Origin: Enterobacteria phage T6
Strand: one strand, 5' to 3'
Sequence record: MH550421
Length of the DNA: 64,000 bases
The notes beneath the pieces are model-generated. The model searched no databases and was not told the origin of the DNA. It saw only the letters and a program-made list of their open reading frames with translations. Shown here in pieces: positions 56,301 through 64,000 of the stretch; the first letter of the stretch is position 1; every line of letters starts with the position of its first letter. The position numbers and the translations under genes were made by a program.

Positions 56301-58358
56301 CTACATTTTGAACTTTTTAGACATTCCGTTGATGTTAACCAAAGAAGCTAAGATTTGAGAAACTTCGTTTTCCTCTTCTTTTGATTCTTCTACAAGGAAT
56401 TGATTAAATCCAGTCATTGGACGAACTTCACCAGTTTCCATTAGATGGTCTCCATCATATACTGATTCTTCTAATTGTTCAGAAGGAGGAACGATTGTAC
56501 CTTCGATTAGATACTTGTTATAAGCAGTTTCTTTCATAAAGTACGTACTTACTTTATTAATCTTCAGTAAAATTCCACGCGGTAGAATAACTTCAGCTTC
56601 TGATGGAAATCCTGTTAAATGACCTGGAACGATAACTTTGATTCGCTCAGCTCCTTTAATTACCATACCCACGCTAGTTTCAGCATCTTCATTAGCATAT
56701 GTAGAATGACTACCCATATGCATCAAATCTTCTGCATCAACAGAACCTTCTCCTTCGCCAGAAAATACTTCACCGGAATCATCTAGAGCCATATAGTTTT
56801 TACCATGCTCACCGAAGATATTCGGTTTAAGCGATGTAGATACGAAGTTCTTGAAATAGAACATTTTGTTTTCAATGTTATGACGCAAAGTTTTAAAGGT
56901 AACTTCTTGTCCACGATAAAGCGTAGTTCCTGGAGGAAGAACTGAACCTTTAGCGAATGCAGAATCCAACGTCTCGATGTGCTTAATGGCACGTTCCATA
57001 TATTCTTCACGGGTAGAATCTGGTTTACCCAAAAGGAACGAGTTCATTTCAACATATGAATCTGCACAATAATCTTCAATTACATCAGATTCAGCTTGAG
57101 TTAATCCTTTTGGAGTTACTTCAGTACTTGCATATTCATACGCCTGAGCAGCAGATTCATTAATCAATTTATAAATGCCATTCATTACAAATTGAATAAT
57201 AGCTGTCTTTTCATCTGGCGTGGCTTTAGAACCTTTAACTAAATCATTAATAATTTTCTTAATAACATCAAAGCTATTAGAAATATTAATGTCAGCAAGA
57301 TCGCTTAAAATTTTATCAGTTTTATAATCAAAGAATTCTTTATTCTTTAAATATTCTTGAGAACCTTGATATGTTATATCGCTCTGCAGCTTGATAGATG
57401 GATCACGTAAACGCGCATGGGCCAATGCGATATGATTTCGGAAGTTTTCTAGTTCATAATCGCTAGATTTAAAACGAGAAGCACTCCTCATACCACCGAT
57501 AGCTCCTTTGCCGAAGTTTGAACCAATCTGGATAACGCCAGAGTTCATCGGACCTTCTGCTTTATATACCGGAACTTTAGATTCAAACTCTTGATATTTC
57601 TTGGCAGCGAAGCTATCACCCTGAAGTGAAGCATCAACAGTAGAATATTGAGCTTGTGCTGCTAATCGACGACTAATTTTAGTTTTCTGAATAACAGCTT
57701 GGTCCGTGCGCTTATCATTTTCTAAAGCAATAGAAGCAGCAACAGCGACAGCTTTAGGAACAGCATTACCTGTTTTAACGTCTACATAAACATCACCAAC
57801 CTTTGATTCAACTTTTGTGAATAACTCAGTTGAAATAGGAGGTACACCTGGAATGTCTTCTAAATTGGCATTTTTACGGTAAACCATAATATATGCGTAC
57901 TTTTTATCATAATCCCAGATTTCCTTTAAAAGAACATATCGACCTGCTCCTTTAATACGTACTAAACGGTCAGCAATAACTTGCATTTGACGAGCAGCGC
58001 CATTTGTTTTACTTTTTAGTACGCGGAATAAGCATGCGTCGATTTTATACTGTTTCATTGTTTGAAGAGCAGTATCAAAAACAGCATTAATGACGCCAAT
58101 TGGATTTCCACCCAAGTTTTTAAGCTTGACTAACGATAATTTCTCGTTGACACCTATCATTACGATATGCATCATTTTATCGCCTGGCTTAACGTTTTTA
58201 TTTGTATCACCGCCAGAGGTGTATGTACAAAATCTAAATCCAGGAAGCACACTTTCTTCGCCGGCTTGAATAGCAAAAATTTGTGGTATTTTATGCTTAG
58301 GATTTAAGTTAACAACCGGCGCCGAAGCGCCGTCAAATAATTCTGTAATAAGTTCCAT
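56301..58358 (-). CDS. Alt-family ADP-ribosyltransferase paralog (685 aa)
   Basis: N-terminus MELITELFD and first about 200 aa parallel the neighbouring alt; C-terminal Arg-STS-ExE motifs YRGQEV...FVSTSL...EAEVILPRG. Confidence 0.85.
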   Translation of the reverse strand: MELITELFDGASAPVVNLNPKHKIPQIFAIQAGEESVLPGFRFCTYTSGGDTNKNVKPGDKMMHIVMIGVNEKLSLVKLKNLGGNPIGVINAVFDTALQTMKQYKIDACLFRVLKSKTNGAARQMQVIADRLVRIKGAGRYVLLKEIWDYDKKYAYIMVYRKNANLEDIPGVPPISTELFTKVESKVGDVYVDVKTGNAVPKAVAVAASIALENDKRTDQAVIQKTKISRRLAAQAQYSTVDASLQGDSFAAKKYQEFESKVPVYKAEGPMNSGVIQIGSNFGKGAIGGMRSASRFKSSDYELENFRNHIALAHARLRDPSIKLQSDITYQGSQEYLKNKEFFDYKTDKILSDLADINISNSFDVIKKIINDLVKGSKATPDEKTAIIQFVMNGIYKLINESAAQAYEYASTEVTPKGLTQAESDVIEDYCADSYVEMNSFLLGKPDSTREEYMERAIKHIETLDSAFAKGSVLPPGTTLYRGQEVTFKTLRHNIENKMFYFKNFVSTSLKPNIFGEHGKNYMALDDSGEVFSGEGEGSVDAEDLMHMGSHSTYANEDAETSVGMVIKGAERIKVIVPGHLTGFPSEAEVILPRGILLKINKVSTYFMKETAYNKYLIEGTIVPPSEQLEESVYDGDHLMETGEVRPMTGFNQFLVEESKEEENEVSQILASLVNINGMSKKFKM

Positions 58359-58361
58359 GAT

Positions 58362-60458
58362 TTATCCTTGAACGAACTTGTAAGGCATGTTTGTAATATC
58401 TATGCAAGACGCAATAATTCCAAGAGATGATTCTACTTTCTGTTTAACATTTGATGAAACAAATGATGCAAAGTCAACTCTGTCTTCTATTTCAATATCA
58501 CCTGTCATTGCAACTACTTCACCGGTTTCCATTAAACAGTCTCCGTCATAGATTACCGATTCGGTGAGTTCTTCTGTGGTCATAACTTCAGCTTGAATGA
58601 GTTTTGTATTGTTAGATGTTGTTCCATCATTATTAGAAGCATCAGTTATTTTATTAACTTTGACCATTAATCCGCGCGGTAGAATAACTTCAGCTTCTGT
58701 TGCTATTCCGAGACTTCCTGGATATACAACATTAACTTTATGAGCTCCATCAATTGCCCATCCTATTTGAACTTTAACGTATTCAGGATTTTCTTTATAC
58801 GCTCTTATTTCGTTTGGATTAATAGTTATTCCTTCTTCATTTTTATCAACTGTTAATTCATTGCGAGCTTCTGGTTCTAAAAGACCAATACCAGCATGTG
58901 TAATTCCAAAACGTCCAAAAATGATAGGAGTTAAAGAAGTAGATACAAAATTTCTGAAATAGAATACTTTATTTTTAACTAGCGCTTCGTATATAGGAGC
59001 AGTCATACTTTGAGCACGATAAACTGTAATGCCTTCCGGTATGCGGTCACCATTTTCAAAAGCTGAATCTAAATTATTTATAGCAGATTCAATTTCTTTT
59101 TCACTCATTACATCATATCGTTCTGGATTGTAACGACCTAAAAGAAGATTATTAATGTCTGTATATCCTGAACCACAATACTCTCTAATACCGCGCTTTT
59201 GCGATGGAGTATATTTAGAACCATCACGGGCAATAGTAATATCAATCATTGGGCCTGCACCAATTCCAGAAAAACTATAAATCATTCGTTTGAGGAATTT
59301 AGTTTTTGCTGCATTCCAGGCATTTTTAGTTATTTCTCCCCAGACTTCATCTGGTTGCCCTTTACGAGTTTTATTATGTTTATCAAGCCAATTATCTTTA
59401 TATTCTTCAAAGAATTGATTGACAGCTGCTGCGTATTTCTCTAAACATTTTATTGAAGTAGTTGGTTCATTTTTGATCGCATTAAGAATTACATCTTTAA
59501 TTTTTTCGGAAACTTCATTAACCTCACTTTTTGAAAAGAATTTATAGTCATAGTGAAGTTCATTCGCAGTTCCTTCGGCAATAATTTTTGCTGCCTTAGT
59601 TTTAGAAGCTAATGAATTAATTCCAAGCTTCATTTCTTCTGCTTCGGGAATTAAAGGAGCAGTAGCAGGTTTATTGAAATTAGCTGCGGTAGATTCATAC
59701 TTCTGGAATAATTCACTTTCAAATCTAGAAGATTCCAATGACTGACTTTGTGCAATTGCTCTACGGGAAATTTTAACTTTAACGATTACAGCTTGGTCAG
59801 AACGTTTATCATTTTCTTGTGCAATAGATGCTGCAATTGCCTCATTTTTAGTTACTTGAGCTCCAGTATCTTTATTGATATAAACATCACCGACCTTCGA
59901 TTCAACCTTAGTAAAGAGCTCGGTACTAATTTCCGGAACTCCTGGAATGTCTTCTAGTGATACATTTTTGCGATGTATAAGAATATATGCATACTTTTTA
60001 TCATAATCCCAGAGTTCCTTAAGAAGGACGTATCTTCCACCTGAACGACTACGGATAAGTCTATCAGCAATAACTTGAATTTGTCGAGCTTGGCCAGCAG
60101 TTTTAGACTTAAGAATACGAAGCATGCAGGCATCAATTTTATACTGACGCATTGTTTGCATTGCAACAGTAAAAACTGAATTGATATAATTAATTGGGCT
60201 TGGTCCAAGACCTTTTAATTTAGCAATTGAACCTTTAGCAGTTAATGTAAAAGGAACAATATGCATCATTTTATCGCCCATTTTTAAATCGCGATTAGTA
60301 TCACCTCCGGATGTATAGGTACATAAACGAAAGCCTGGTTGTTCAATTGCATCATCAACATGAACTGAAAAAATTTGCGGTATTTTCTTCTTTGGATTTA
60401 AGTTTGTAATTGGAAGAGTAGTATCTTCGTCAAATAATTCTGTAATGAGTTCCATCAT
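58362..60458 (-). CDS. alt: Alt ADP-ribosyltransferase (698 aa)
   Basis: MMELITELFD...; C-terminal YRAQSM...FVSTSLTP...EAEVILPRG; position next to ligase gene 30. Confidence 0.9.
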   Translation of the reverse strand: MMELITELFDEDTTLPITNLNPKKKIPQIFSVHVDDAIEQPGFRLCTYTSGGDTNRDLKMGDKMMHIVPFTLTAKGSIAKLKGLGPSPINYINSVFTVAMQTMRQYKIDACMLRILKSKTAGQARQIQVIADRLIRSRSGGRYVLLKELWDYDKKYAYILIHRKNVSLEDIPGVPEISTELFTKVESKVGDVYINKDTGAQVTKNEAIAASIAQENDKRSDQAVIVKVKISRRAIAQSQSLESSRFESELFQKYESTAANFNKPATAPLIPEAEEMKLGINSLASKTKAAKIIAEGTANELHYDYKFFSKSEVNEVSEKIKDVILNAIKNEPTTSIKCLEKYAAAVNQFFEEYKDNWLDKHNKTRKGQPDEVWGEITKNAWNAAKTKFLKRMIYSFSGIGAGPMIDITIARDGSKYTPSQKRGIREYCGSGYTDINNLLLGRYNPERYDVMSEKEIESAINNLDSAFENGDRIPEGITVYRAQSMTAPIYEALVKNKVFYFRNFVSTSLTPIIFGRFGITHAGIGLLEPEARNELTVDKNEEGITINPNEIRAYKENPEYVKVQIGWAIDGAHKVNVVYPGSLGIATEAEVILPRGLMVKVNKITDASNNDGTTSNNTKLIQAEVMTTEELTESVIYDGDCLMETGEVVAMTGDIEIEDRVDFASFVSSNVKQKVESSLGIIASCIDITNMPYKFVQG

Positions 60459-60478
60459 ATCCTCTCTAGTGTTTATTC

Positions 60479-60486
60479 TATTTATA
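60479..60486 (-). promoter_or_regulatory. late promoter TATAAATA (alt)
   Basis: Plus TATTTATA about 21 nt upstream of alt start. Confidence 0.5.
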
Positions 60487-60488
60487 AA

Positions 60489-60506
60489 ATTAAAGGCCCG
60501 AAGGCC
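60489..60506 (-). terminator. terminator-like hairpin upstream of alt
   Basis: Minus AAAGGCC-UUCG-GGCCUUU followed by U-rich run. Confidence 0.5.
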
Positions 60507-60507
60507 T

Positions 60508-60696
60508 TTAATAATCTAGTGGTAAGAGAGTACGGTATATTTCAAACTTTGGACCTTTTTCATAGGCATCAAATGTTTCTGTAAATTTATTATAAGCATA
60601 TGCATCTACAAATTCGAGAACGACTTGTGATACAGAAGTAGAAACATCTCCACCTTCTTTTTGAGCTACGACAACTGTTTCTAAGTAAGCTTTCAT
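60508..60696 (-). CDS. hypothetical small protein (62 aa)
   Basis: ORF overlapping ligase stop (ATGA). Confidence 0.6.
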   Translation of the reverse strand: MKAYLETVVVAQKEGGDVSTSVSQVVLEFVDAYAYNKFTETFDAYEKGPKFEIYRTLLPLDY

Positions 60697-62156
60697 AGAC
60701 CAGTTACCTCATGAAAATCACCAAATACATCTTCGAATGTATTAGCTTTAGTTTTATCTTCACGCAAACGAATCGCAATTGGAAGAAATAATTTAACGTA
60801 ATCAGTGCGGCCATCAGATTTTAACCAACCGTTGCATTCGCACTCTAGAATTTTTCCAATATAATAATTTTGGTTTTCCATAATGCGAGTACGGTCAAGT
60901 TCATGTGATTTTACGCCGGCTTTATCTTTTAAGCCTGAACCAGCATTTACCTTAATTTTTCCACACTCTGACTCAAGAATAAATCCACCTGCTTTAGTAG
61001 GGTCTTTACGGTGAGGATAAATTCCTACAATTTTTAAATCAACATCAATTACTTCTTTAAATTTATAGAGATTTTTCGAACGAGCATTTTCCCATAATCC
61101 ATCGATATTTTTGAGAATAATACCTTCAAGACCTTGGTCAATATACTTTTTATAAATTACCTTAGCTTCATCTAGGTTATTTACTACCTGGTTTTCAATT
61201 AAAATTACTTTATCATAGCCTGATGTCATTTGTTCTAATTTAGAAAAACGTACATCATATTTCAAGCGAAATGCTGGAAGACCGTATACTTCTACCAACG
61301 GGACATAATCCCAGACCTGAAACTTCATGCATTGTGCTTCTTTTTCAGAAATGGTTCCCTTTAAAGATTTATTGGCGATGCCATTAGATGCAGTACGTGA
61401 TTCAGCTACTTCTGTGAAGTCTTTAACTTTACTGTTTTCAGGATGAGCATCAAAAAGAAAATCTAGGCCTTCTGGCTCCTTTTTAACTTGCTCATGGTAT
61501 ACCAATTCGCCATCAATTAACACGCCTTCTGGATGAATCTGGCGAGCTTCAGCGGTCATTTTGATTAACTCTTCTTTAAGAAGATCTAATCCTAGATATT
61601 CATTACCAGCTCGTGATAAAAGACGAACATCATCTAATTCATCACCTCTGACTTCAGCAAAGCACCGAGCCCCATCAGCTTTTAACTGGGCAAAGGCTGG
61701 AAATTTAATATTCTTATTAATGCCTTTTTCATCATAAGAACTTGCAAGCATTTGAGGTTGTTCAGGAATTAAACCTGGCCAAACTTTGTTTGCAATAGAT
61801 ACCGAAGCACCGCATTCAAGGTCTCGCATCATCACTCGACGCAAAACTTCAACATCATCTTTTTTACCATCGGTGATGTATCCAGTTAATTCCTCAATTG
61901 CCGCATTTCCAGTCAATTTCCGAGTAGCTAACGTGAATTCAATGAAGTCAAGCATATCAGTAAGAGTCAACATTCCAAAACTCTGGGTAGCAATACCAGG
62001 TTTAGGCCATTTCTTGATATAATACTGTAACCCACGAGAATAAGTCAGACGATATACCCGTTTAAGCAATTCATTATCTTTATTCTTTTCAAGAATTGCT
62101 TGTTTTTGTTTAGTTGAACCAATAGATGCTATTTCGTTCAGAATTTTAAGAATCAT
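60693..62156 (-). CDS. 30: gp30 ATP-dependent DNA ligase
   Basis: 487 aa starting MILKILNEIASIGSTKQKQAILEKNKDNELLKRVYRLTY; adenylation Lys in FAQLKADGARC. Confidence 0.95.
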   Translation of the reverse strand: MILKILNEIASIGSTKQKQAILEKNKDNELLKRVYRLTYSRGLQYYIKKWPKPGIATQSFGMLTLTDMLDFIEFTLATRKLTGNAAIEELTGYITDGKKDDVEVLRRVMMRDLECGASVSIANKVWPGLIPEQPQMLASSYDEKGINKNIKFPAFAQLKADGARCFAEVRGDELDDVRLLSRAGNEYLGLDLLKEELIKMTAEARQIHPEGVLIDGELVYHEQVKKEPEGLDFLFDAHPENSKVKDFTEVAESRTASNGIANKSLKGTISEKEAQCMKFQVWDYVPLVEVYGLPAFRLKYDVRFSKLEQMTSGYDKVILIENQVVNNLDEAKVIYKKYIDQGLEGIILKNIDGLWENARSKNLYKFKEVIDVDLKIVGIYPHRKDPTKAGGFILESECGKIKVNAGSGLKDKAGVKSHELDRTRIMENQNYYIGKILECECNGWLKSDGRTDYVKLFLPIAIRLREDKTKANTFEDVFGDFHEVTGL

Positions 62157-62422
62157 TATTCATCCTTTAGAGTTTGGTTTACAGCTCTATTATAAATCAA
62201 TTCATCATTAAGCTCAGTCAAAGACCTGTGGTACGTGGTTCTAACTTTATTTCCTTGCATCCAGTGCTTGACGTAAATGAAACCTTGCTCTACACATTTT
62301 TTAAAAATTCGTTCGTCTTTTTGAGCTCGGAATTCTGGATTGCATCTAAAAAATTGATTTACGTGACCGTAATCACGTGTAGTATTACCTTCATTTTCAT
62401 AAATAGTGTGAACGACAAACAT
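62156..62422 (-). CDS. 30.1: hypothetical protein (30.1 position)
   Basis: 88 aa; ATGA overlap with ligase start. Confidence 0.7.
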   Translation of the reverse strand: MFVVHTIYENEGNTTRDYGHVNQFFRCNPEFRAQKDERIFKKCVEQGFIYVKHWMQGNKVRTTYHRSLTELNDELIYNRAVNQTLKDE

Positions 62423-63267
62423 TAGAATGCTCCTTGGAAAATATTATCACCACAAGTAGGTCTATTATACAAATACTCTATGCCACCGGGTTTAATATAG
62501 TTCCATGTCTGAAACGGATGCGTCTGATATGGATGATATGGATGATATAGATTATAAGGATTAAATCCAGGAGTTCTCCAGGTAGTGTTCCAAGGAAAAG
62601 AATCGTTTTTAATCATCTTTTCAATTACATCTTTTATAGCTTTTTCACTATCAAAACTTTCTTTATTTTCCTTTGGTGAAAAAAGCTTATTCTCTACATC
62701 ATTCCATGTATAAACTCGCTGAGCAGTTTTTGGAATATTGTCACGCTCCCCTCGAGCCATCCAATAAACAGGAACACTTAATATTTCACTCGCATGATCG
62801 CAGTGGTGAGCGAGATCGTCGATATAACAAATTACGTTATATTTCTCTTTTGCCTTTTTGAACAACTCTTCTTTTGAAGAATCGTGACCACACATCATTA
62901 CTTCTGAGAAGGCACCAGGAAAAAGAGCATTCAAATTAAATTGACGATTCAACAGAGCGTCAATAGAATCACCCAATGCTGTAACAGCTACAAAATTATA
63001 ATATTCTTTTAATTTGTTAATTACACACAGAGCATCTTTGTATGGAGACAAGTAACGAATAAAATCTGAACGATTGTATTTTTCAATTAACTTGACGCCA
63101 AGTTCTTCATCACAATTAAAGAGTTTACCTGGAGAAATAAATTTCTCATCTTGGATCATTTTTAAAATATGTTCTAACGGAAGATTATATTTCTGAGCAA
63201 AATAAGGAAGGCCTGATTGCCAGCTTAAACATACTCCATCAATATCAGTTAAAATAGTAGGCTTCAT
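62422..63267 (-). CDS. 30.2: HAD-like hydrolase candidate (30.2 position)
   Basis: 281 aa; N-terminal LTDIDGVC resembles HAD motif I; C-terminal Tyr/Pro-rich HPYHPY tract. Confidence 0.7.
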   Translation of the reverse strand: MKPTILTDIDGVCLSWQSGLPYFAQKYNLPLEHILKMIQDEKFISPGKLFNCDEELGVKLIEKYNRSDFIRYLSPYKDALCVINKLKEYYNFVAVTALGDSIDALLNRQFNLNALFPGAFSEVMMCGHDSSKEELFKKAKEKYNVICYIDDLAHHCDHASEILSVPVYWMARGERDNIPKTAQRVYTWNDVENKLFSPKENKESFDSEKAIKDVIEKMIKNDSFPWNTTWRTPGFNPYNLYHPYHPYQTHPFQTWNYIKPGGIEYLYNRPTCGDNIFQGAF

Positions 63268-63728
63268 AGAGAGTCTCTTAATAGGTTTAACACATCAATA
63301 AATTCAGCTTCGGTTAGTATTGTATCATCTTTTGTTAGACCACTAGCCATGCTGTGCTTCAAAACTTTTCCTTTCGAGGCTTGTAATGCATCACGAAAGC
63401 CCTTGTTTTGGATCGCTGCTTCAAAATATGCATTTGTGTATAATTCTTTCCACGCCGGGGAATATCTTGAAAATGGAACTCCAAGCCAGAAGAGGGTCCC
63501 ACGGTCCTGAGCTCTAGCATAAGACCTTCCAGCTTGTTGAGCGGCAAGCCCGGATAACCCAAATATACGACGTTGTTGTTCAACATTTTTCACCTTGCAC
63601 CCTTGAAGGAATCCTTCTAGACCTCCAAATTGAATACCATCCATAACGAAAGGCCAATGGGCGAAATTACTTAATGCACATGATGGCCACCTAAAATTAC
63701 TTCTAATCTCTAACTCAGACATTTTCAA
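63264..63728 (-). CDS. 30.3: NADAR/YbiA-like domain protein (30.3 position)
   Basis: 154 aa; LSNFAHWPFVMDGIQFGGLEGFLQGCKV resembles the YbiA/NADAR core FSNFA.WP...G..F...EH.FQ..K. Confidence 0.7.
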   Translation of the reverse strand: MKMSELEIRSNFRWPSCALSNFAHWPFVMDGIQFGGLEGFLQGCKVKNVEQQRRIFGLSGLAAQQAGRSYARAQDRGTLFWLGVPFSRYSPAWKELYTNAYFEAAIQNKGFRDALQASKGKVLKHSMASGLTKDDTILTEAEFIDVLNLLRDSL

Positions 63729-63921
63729 TGCTTATAATTTCAACATCAGCCCAATGACCATAGCAAGGAAGACGAAATTCAACTGGCCAGTTAGGGTCCT
63801 TTTCTAATATAATAGACTTAACTTGTGGTTCTTCGTGTTCATCAGTATATGGATTTTTATCTGTTACTTTATATGTGACCTTAATGTACTGAATTCCAAA
63901 AATCTTATTAATTATATTCAT
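63715..63921 (-). CDS. hypothetical small protein
   Basis: 68 aa ORF overlapping 30.3 start. Confidence 0.55.
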   Translation of the reverse strand: MNIINKIFGIQYIKVTYKVTDKNPYTDEHEEPQVKSIILEKDPNWPVEFRLPCYGHWADVEIISIENV

Positions 63922-64000
63922 ACTAATTCCTTTAATCCGTAAATAGGAGATAATTCATCACCCATACGAAGGTCTTCATTTCCATCTACCCAGGAAACAA
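63919..64000 (-). CDS. hypothetical protein, partial (5' end beyond window end)
   Basis: Open minus-strand frame from window edge to TGA at 63919-63921 overlapping the next ATG. Confidence 0.4.

Follow-up and report, generated by a model that had tools for sequence, protein, structure and literature searches.

The locus considered here raises the question of what a short open reading frame, lying near the DNA ligase gene and two Alt-like ADP-ribosyltransferase genes of Enterobacteria phage T6, does for the phage, and whether its neighbours take part in the same task. The initial annotation, made from the letters of the window (the whole stretch of 64,000 nucleotides from sequence record MH550421), had read LSNFAHWPFVMDGIQFGGLEGFLQGCKV in the frame at 63264-63728 as resembling the conserved core of YbiA/NADAR N-glycosidases. 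Window positions 62100-64000 are 100% identical at the DNA level to Enterobacteria phage T6 (AP018814 / NC_054907), and the genes that enter the argument are as follows.

63264..63722, minus strand: adfN (orthologue of T4 gene 30.3), a stand-alone NADAR-domain protein of 152 aa and predicted guanine-ADP-ribose DNA glycohydrolase, assigned from the ORF, the identity to T4, PF08010, AF2 and Foldseek.
62422..63267, minus strand: gene 30.2, 281 aa, beginning MKPTILTDIDGV, with a HAD core (residues ~1-197) and a disordered tail, assigned from motifs, AF2 and Foldseek.
62156-62422, minus strand: gp30.1, 88 aa, with a DUF3045 match (E=2.8e-64).
60693-62156, minus strand: DNA ligase (gene 30), downstream of adfN and 30.2 on the same strand.
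58362-60458, minus strand: ligase-proximal Alt-like ADP-ribosyltransferase gene, downstream on the same strand.
56301-58358, minus strand: distal Alt-like ADP-ribosyltransferase gene, downstream on the same strand.

The longest ORF for adfN runs on the minus strand from a TTG at 63728 to the stop at 63264 (154 aa), but this TTG, which adds two residues, is probably not the start used. The true start is likely the ATG two codons downstream at 63722, giving 152 aa; it is the annotated start in both the T6 RefSeq entry (YP_010067350, 459 nt) and T4 (NP_049816), and gene 30.4, which lies upstream, ends with a stop codon that overlaps this ATG. At the other end, the TGA of adfN (63264-63266, minus strand) shares an ATGA overlap with the ATG of the 281-aa gene 30.2 in T6 as well as in T4, and one-base overlaps then join 30.2 to 30.1 and 30.1 to the ligase gene. 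The gene is part of a tightly packed early-region gene string, whose order 30.4-30.3-30.2-30.1-30(ligase)-alt.1-alt is common to T6, T4 and RB69. A promoter and terminator consensus scan of 60400-64000 returned 13 promoter-like sites where 12.8 are expected, and it placed no terminator on the strand of the genes; because the scan is at background, the timing of expression rests on the gene packing and on the literature.

A second frame is present inside adfN. A 75-aa ORF beginning with ATG (63359-63586, minus strand) corresponds to T4 30.3', which is annotated as 'internal translation'. The frame is open in 16 of 16 close relatives (74-75 aa, or 53 aa where it starts at an internal ATG), with AdfN identities down to ~81-84%, and is missing from distant relatives, in which the longest alternative-frame ORF has a median length of 32 aa.

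At the protein level, T6 AdfN is identical to T4 gp30.3 at 150 of 152 residues, and the only differences, Q22H and I125M, both fall at positions that vary within the family (57-sequence alignment). The match to PF08010 (Phage_30_3) passes the gathering threshold by a wide distance, scoring 233.5 bits (cut-off 36) with E=7.7e-70 and covering profile positions 1-138 of 138, and tblastn matches to gp30.3 occur in 1510 phage records, far beyond chance. In PHROGs, the protein matches phrog_652 (unknown function) and, weakly, phrog_1017 (E=0.009).

These matches place the protein within a phage family; its relation to NADAR proteins is less direct. A Pfam scan of T6 AdfN alone at E<=1 gave no match to NADAR PF08719 and, besides PF08010, only a spurious DUF724; an NCBIfam scan gave no match, and a phmmer search against PDB sequences returned only a chance match, 3rjz, at E=0.62. 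The direct PF08719 match is missing because Pfam splits the phage clade off as a family of its own, PF08010, so that the case for placing T6 AdfN in the NADAR superfamily is built on profile, transitive and structural evidence. For the first two, we gathered 104 relatives and aligned the 57 full-length ones. The profile of these 57 sequences, when searched against PDB sequences, had E. coli YbiA (2b3w) as its top match, at E=0.0049 and across the SNF...E...Q..K motif; 8 of the 57 relatives individually match PF08719 (best E=1.5e-7), and several gp30.3 relatives carry the JGI names YbiA or DUF1768. Thus, of the NADAR profile relationship proposed at the outset, the part concerning the T6 protein by itself did not hold at E<=1, while the link through its relatives and through the family profile did; in terms of curated profiles, the connection to PF08719 is a transitive one.

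For the structural evidence, an AF2 model built on the 57-sequence alignment had a pLDDT of 92.7 and a pTM of 0.88, with the expected helices and short strand pairs. When this model was compared with the PDB by Foldseek, the top three matches were the only three NADAR structures there, namely YbiA 2b3w (the best match, E=3.8e-5, TM 0.70), 8bau (a Phytophthora NADAR with ADP-ribose) and 8bat (the DarG1-type NADAR of Geobacter lovleyi), and all matches below them had a probability of 0.10 or less. The elements of the protein on which the assignment depends can be located on the DNA as follows.

63591..63674, minus strand: NADAR active-site motif, residues L17-V44 (SNF...EGFxQxxK), sequence LSNFAHWPFVMDGIQFGGLEGFLQGCKV, from the alignment and a profile match to YbiA residues 29-82.
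63615-63617, minus strand: codon GAA of E36, invariant in 57 relatives.
63594-63596, minus strand: codon AAG of K43, at least 90% conserved in 57 relatives.
63354..63356, minus strand: codon CAC of H123, on the last beta-strand (predicted 120-123), invariant in 57 sequences, from the alignment and AF2.
63267..63311, minus strand: C-terminal alpha-helix, residues 138-152 (138-151 in the AF2 model).

In published NADARs, the N-terminal motif carries a catalytic Glu and Lys (E43 in Pn; E88 and K95 in EcC7; PMC11543638), and the last strand supplies a third catalytic residue, which differs between the groups: Glu for YbiA, Asp for DarG1-type proteins and His for phage NADARs (PMC11543638, PMC11125620). 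The AdfN stretch containing E36 and K43 aligns to the YbiA segment SNFA...SEHYFQAQK, and S18, N19, F20, E36, G37, F38, Q40 and H123 are invariant in the 57 relatives. The catalytic residues are conserved in the alignment, with E36 invariant and K43 at least 90% conserved. H123, in place of the Glu of YbiA-type or the Asp of DarG1-type proteins, is a signature of the phage gp30.3 clade. From the fold, the catalytic residues and the transitive profile link, T6 AdfN is a member of the NADAR superfamily, and the resemblance of the frame at 63264-63728 to the YbiA/NADAR core, first noticed in the letters, is real.

Membership of the superfamily leaves room for more than one substrate. The best single match in the PDB, by structure and by sequence, is E. 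coli YbiA, as would be expected if AdfN had the housekeeping role described for YbiA of bacteria and plants, that of an N-glycosidase for intermediates of the riboflavin pathway. However, the Glu on the last strand that defines YbiA is replaced here by an invariant His, the published phylogeny places the gp30.3 clade nearest to the DarG1-type antitoxins, and the phenotype of the T4 and T2 deletions is specific to DarTG1 (PMC11825919). We give this housekeeping role next to no probability.

The function itself has been addressed by experiments on close orthologues. NADARs reverse guanine-N2 ADP-ribosylation (Schuller et al. 2023, PMC11543638). Johannesman et al. 2025 traced the DarTG1 resistance of the T-even phages to gene 30.3, which they renamed adfN for anti-DarT factor NADAR (PMC11825919). 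AdfN is necessary and sufficient for this resistance (PMC11825919; PMC11125620): T4 and T2 no longer form plaques on DarTG1 hosts once adfN is deleted, and adfN supplied in trans rescues RB69, whose own allele is frameshifted and non-functional (PMC11825919). In a T4 transposon screen, insertions in 30.3 were likewise lost on DarTG1 hosts, making 30.3 conditionally essential (preprint 10.1101/2025.11.20.689424). Biochemically, purified AdfN strips ADP-ribose from DNA (PMC11825919), and purified T4 gp30.3 is a hydrolase of G-ADPr DNA that leaves T-ADPr DNA untouched (Toxins 2024, PMC11125620), while T4 NADAR also leaves C-ADPr in place when it removes G-ADPr (PMC12945103). E36A, K43A and an RB69-type C-terminal truncation each impair T4 AdfN, and the C-terminal helix is needed for full activity (PMC11825919); the RB69 product stops at residue 137, whereas in T6 and T4 the product is of full length and retains the helix.

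The Methods of PMC11125620 describe the T4 NADAR construct as 'gp30.3; residues 1-208', compared with 152 aa for T4 and T6 gp30.3. The figure may be a tag-inclusive count or refer to a different accession; some family members have 201 aa.

Both the removal of ADP-ribose from guanine in DNA and the use of this reaction as a counter-defence against a DNA-ADP-ribosylating toxin, as the initial annotation had suggested, are thus borne out by experiment for the 99%-identical T4 orthologue, which counters DarT1 (PMC11825919, PMC11125620). We consider it highly probable that the T6 gene is AdfN, a minimal stand-alone NADAR that reverses the guanine ADP-ribosylation of phage DNA by DarT1. That the T6 allele, with Q22H and I125M, does the same job as T4 AdfN is what its sequence predicts. 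T6 was included in the published phage panel and is fully resistant to DarTG1, which is correlative support, since the deletions and complementations were carried out on T4 and T2 rather than on T6 (PMC11825919), and T6 might also carry the other factor, AdfA.

The course of events would then be as follows. The host DarT1 toxin would ADP-ribosylate the N2 of guanines in the replicating phage DNA, and AdfN would hydrolyse the N-glycosidic ribose-guanine bond, as demonstrated for the T4 protein. By analogy with 8bau, E36 and K43 may contact the distal ribose and the diphosphate, and E36, K43 and H123 together would hold and activate the distal ribose, with H123 as a putative stand-in for the third catalytic carboxylate. 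Release of ADP-ribose would leave the bases unmodified and allow phage replication to go on. T4 AdfN works fully only during T-even infection: it gives no rescue from DarT1 in uninfected E. coli, and its rescue of phages outside the T-even group is partial (PMC11825919, PMC11125620). The in vivo mechanism is therefore incomplete and needs a T-even factor or context; according to PMC11825919, such a factor is probably required.

Since the function of T6 AdfN is already published through its T4 and T2 orthologues, the gene itself adds nothing new. The raw-sequence reading of the NADAR motif matched a function established by experiments in 2024-2025, and it is useful as a positive control.

The neighbourhood of adfN could point to a different substrate. 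With two Alt-like ADP-ribosyltransferase genes in its own early gene string, AdfN might mainly process soluble ADP-ribose derivatives or NAD-derived immune signals, or reverse the ADP-ribosylation of protein or RNA by Alt, ModA and ModB, in which case its proximity to alt would be meaningful. To evaluate the linkage, we have compared 80 viral contigs encoding gp30.3-type proteins, to which the reference loci of T6 and T4 were added, making 82 loci. Within 10 kb of gp30.3, 22 of the 82 have the ligase and 20 have Alt (18 of 80 when the references are left out), essentially those of T4-proper lineages; no conserved neighbour family was found in the remaining ~60 loci. The closeness of adfN to Alt and ligase is therefore lineage-specific synteny, and the meaning that had been implied for it is not supported. 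Besides the confinement of the Alt link to T4-proper lineages (within 10 kb in 18 of 80 contig loci, with no neighbour kept elsewhere), the 99%-identical T4 protein shows G-ADPr DNA hydrolysis and a DarTG1-specific phenotype (PMC11825919, PMC11125620), and there are no reports of activity on protein-ADPr or on soluble substrates. A main role away from DNA is, in our judgement, very unlikely.

The Alt genes themselves differ between the two phages. T6 has two full-length tandem Alt-like genes, of which the ligase-proximal one is 70% and the distal one 41% identical to T4 Alt; T4 has a single alt and the short remnants alt.-1 and alt.-2, annotated as an old partial duplication. As for gp30.1, it is kept beside the ligase in T4-proper lineages.

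The immediate neighbour, gp30.2, deserves separate attention, since a HAD-like motif had been noted in this 281-aa product. This reading is supported. T6 gp30.2 is 98% identical to T4 gp30.2, and among 40 relatives D8, D10, K132, D150 and D151 are invariant and T96 is at least 90% conserved, giving the HAD motifs I (DxD), II (Thr), III (Lys) and IV (DD). AF2 modelled the core (residues 1-197) mostly with pLDDT >90 and left the tail disordered. Foldseek gave 106 PDB matches at E<=1e-3, and the 50 listed consist of proteins with the HAD fold and of enzymes engineered on HAD scaffolds; among the matches listed, the best target-normalised TM values, 0.64-0.71, belong to the deoxyribonucleotidases 3bwv, 2jao, 2i7d and 4yih. 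The family profile also matched mouse 5'(3')-deoxyribonucleotidase 2jao weakly (E=0.06). A search for a curated HAD profile in Pfam and NCBIfam gave no match, and in PHROGs the protein falls into phrog_420 (unknown function), with a weak match to a PNK phrog (E=0.0026). The conserved motifs and the modelled fold support gp30.2 as a HAD-superfamily hydrolase resembling the 5'(3')-deoxyribonucleotidases, with the activity putative. Our literature search for gp30.2 found no paper, and with ~1,400 phage records this is a widespread T4-like HAD hydrolase.

The tail of gp30.2 (residues ~200-281; 62422-62670, minus strand) has a pLDDT <50 and is rich in Pro, Trp and Tyr. Its terminal motif G-I-E-Y-L-x-x-(Q/R)-P-T returns in divergent homologues, although the rest of their tails cannot be aligned; in other homologues the tail ends in ...LRAYY... 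or ...LLNKVxANDS..., and many are tailless (196-220 aa). This pattern suggests exchangeable docking peptides.

The two adjacent genes could be envisaged as a two-enzyme counter-defence module, in which gp30.2 is the missing T-even factor or dephosphorylates the reaction product; as a HAD phosphatase with a disordered tail bearing conserved motifs, it would, for example, recruit AdfN to phage DNA or process what AdfN releases. The ATGA translational coupling of 30.3 and 30.2 in T6 and T4 fits such a module, as do the probable requirement for a T-even factor (PMC11825919) and the presence of both genes in RB69, where AdfN in trans fully works. Moreover, when we searched 50,697 phage records by tblastn for co-occurrence at the genome level, gp30.3-like genes were present in 1510 and gp30.2-like genes in 1438, with near-identical genus distributions. 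This similarity arises because both are common Straboviridae genes and is confounded by phylogeny, hence it is no evidence of coupling. At the same time, no more than 22 of the 82 loci have gp30.2 and gp30.3 within 10 kb of each other, and in other T4-like genera the distance between the two genes is larger, ~59 kb in Klebsiella phage Mineola and ~96 kb in KVP40. The T4 DarTG1 transposon screen reports only 30.3/adfN and never mentions 30.2 (10.1101/2025.11.20.689424), and ~200 other T-even genes fit the description of the missing factor equally well. We regard the module as extremely unlikely. The broader idea of a small nucleotide-processing cluster was also rejected as unsupported: the 30.2/30.3/ligase/Alt arrangement is T4-proper synteny, with adjacency limited to those lineages and no neighbour kept in the ~60 distant loci, and it is not a conserved linkage across the 82 loci.

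The current records describe this region in other terms. The product name of adfN in T6 RefSeq (NC_054907) is 'prohead core protein', a label that needs correcting. When compared with the T4 names, further T6 RefSeq/GenBank labels differ as well: the 62-aa alt.1 is a 'siderophore-interacting protein', the 95-aa 30.6 a 'terminase large subunit', 30.7 a 'head vertex protein' and 31.1 a 'tail fiber protein'. The annotation looks like a set of product names inherited from mislabelled phages, and sources of this kind are cited in the notes of the T6 record. Among the GenBank phages, one whose protein is 100% identical to AdfN already has the label 'NADAR domain containing protein', beside a 'putative phosphatase'.

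It is instructive to compare the two proteins with known systems. Like the 5'(3')-deoxyribonucleotidases (cdN/mdN; 2jao, 2i7d, 3bwv), gp30.2 has a HAD Rossmannoid core with a helical cap and the DxD, Thr, Lys and DD motifs, but the identity is only 13-19% and gp30.2 adds a disordered C-terminal tail of ~80 residues.

For AdfN, the closest system is T4 AdfN (NP_049816), which has the same length, the same flanking genes (30.4 upstream, 30.2 downstream), E36, K43 and H123, and the C-terminal helix, with 150 of 152 residues identical; what sets the two apart is Q22H and I125M in T6, and the activity data come from the T4 allele. YbiA (2b3w; PF08719) matches best by structure (TM 0.70) and is alone among PDB sequences in matching the family profile significantly; it shares the SNF...E..F/YxQ..K motif and also has G-ADPr hydrolase activity in vitro (PMC11125620). 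However, it is only ~17% identical, has Glu where the phage clade has His, and belongs to a Pfam family separate from the phage PF08010; in addition, YbiA removes C-ADPr, which T4 NADAR does not (PMC12945103), and has a housekeeping/riboflavin role.

The DarG1 antitoxins (E. coli C7; Geobacter lovleyi 8bat) share with AdfN the fold (Foldseek probability 0.98), as well as the reaction, the guanine specificity and the equivalent catalytic Glu and Lys (PMC11543638). In contrast to AdfN, DarG1 has an N-terminal extension, carries Asp instead of His on the last strand, and rescues uninfected cells from DarT1, which T4 AdfN does not; it also has a partner toxin gene, while AdfN, encoded by a lytic phage, is an orphan. 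Finally, AdfN(Bas32) and AdfN(Bas60), phage NADARs from T5-like and Vequintavirinae phages, use the same chemistry against DarTG1 (PMC11825919), but they belong to other NADAR clades, were independently acquired, and are active without T-even infection.
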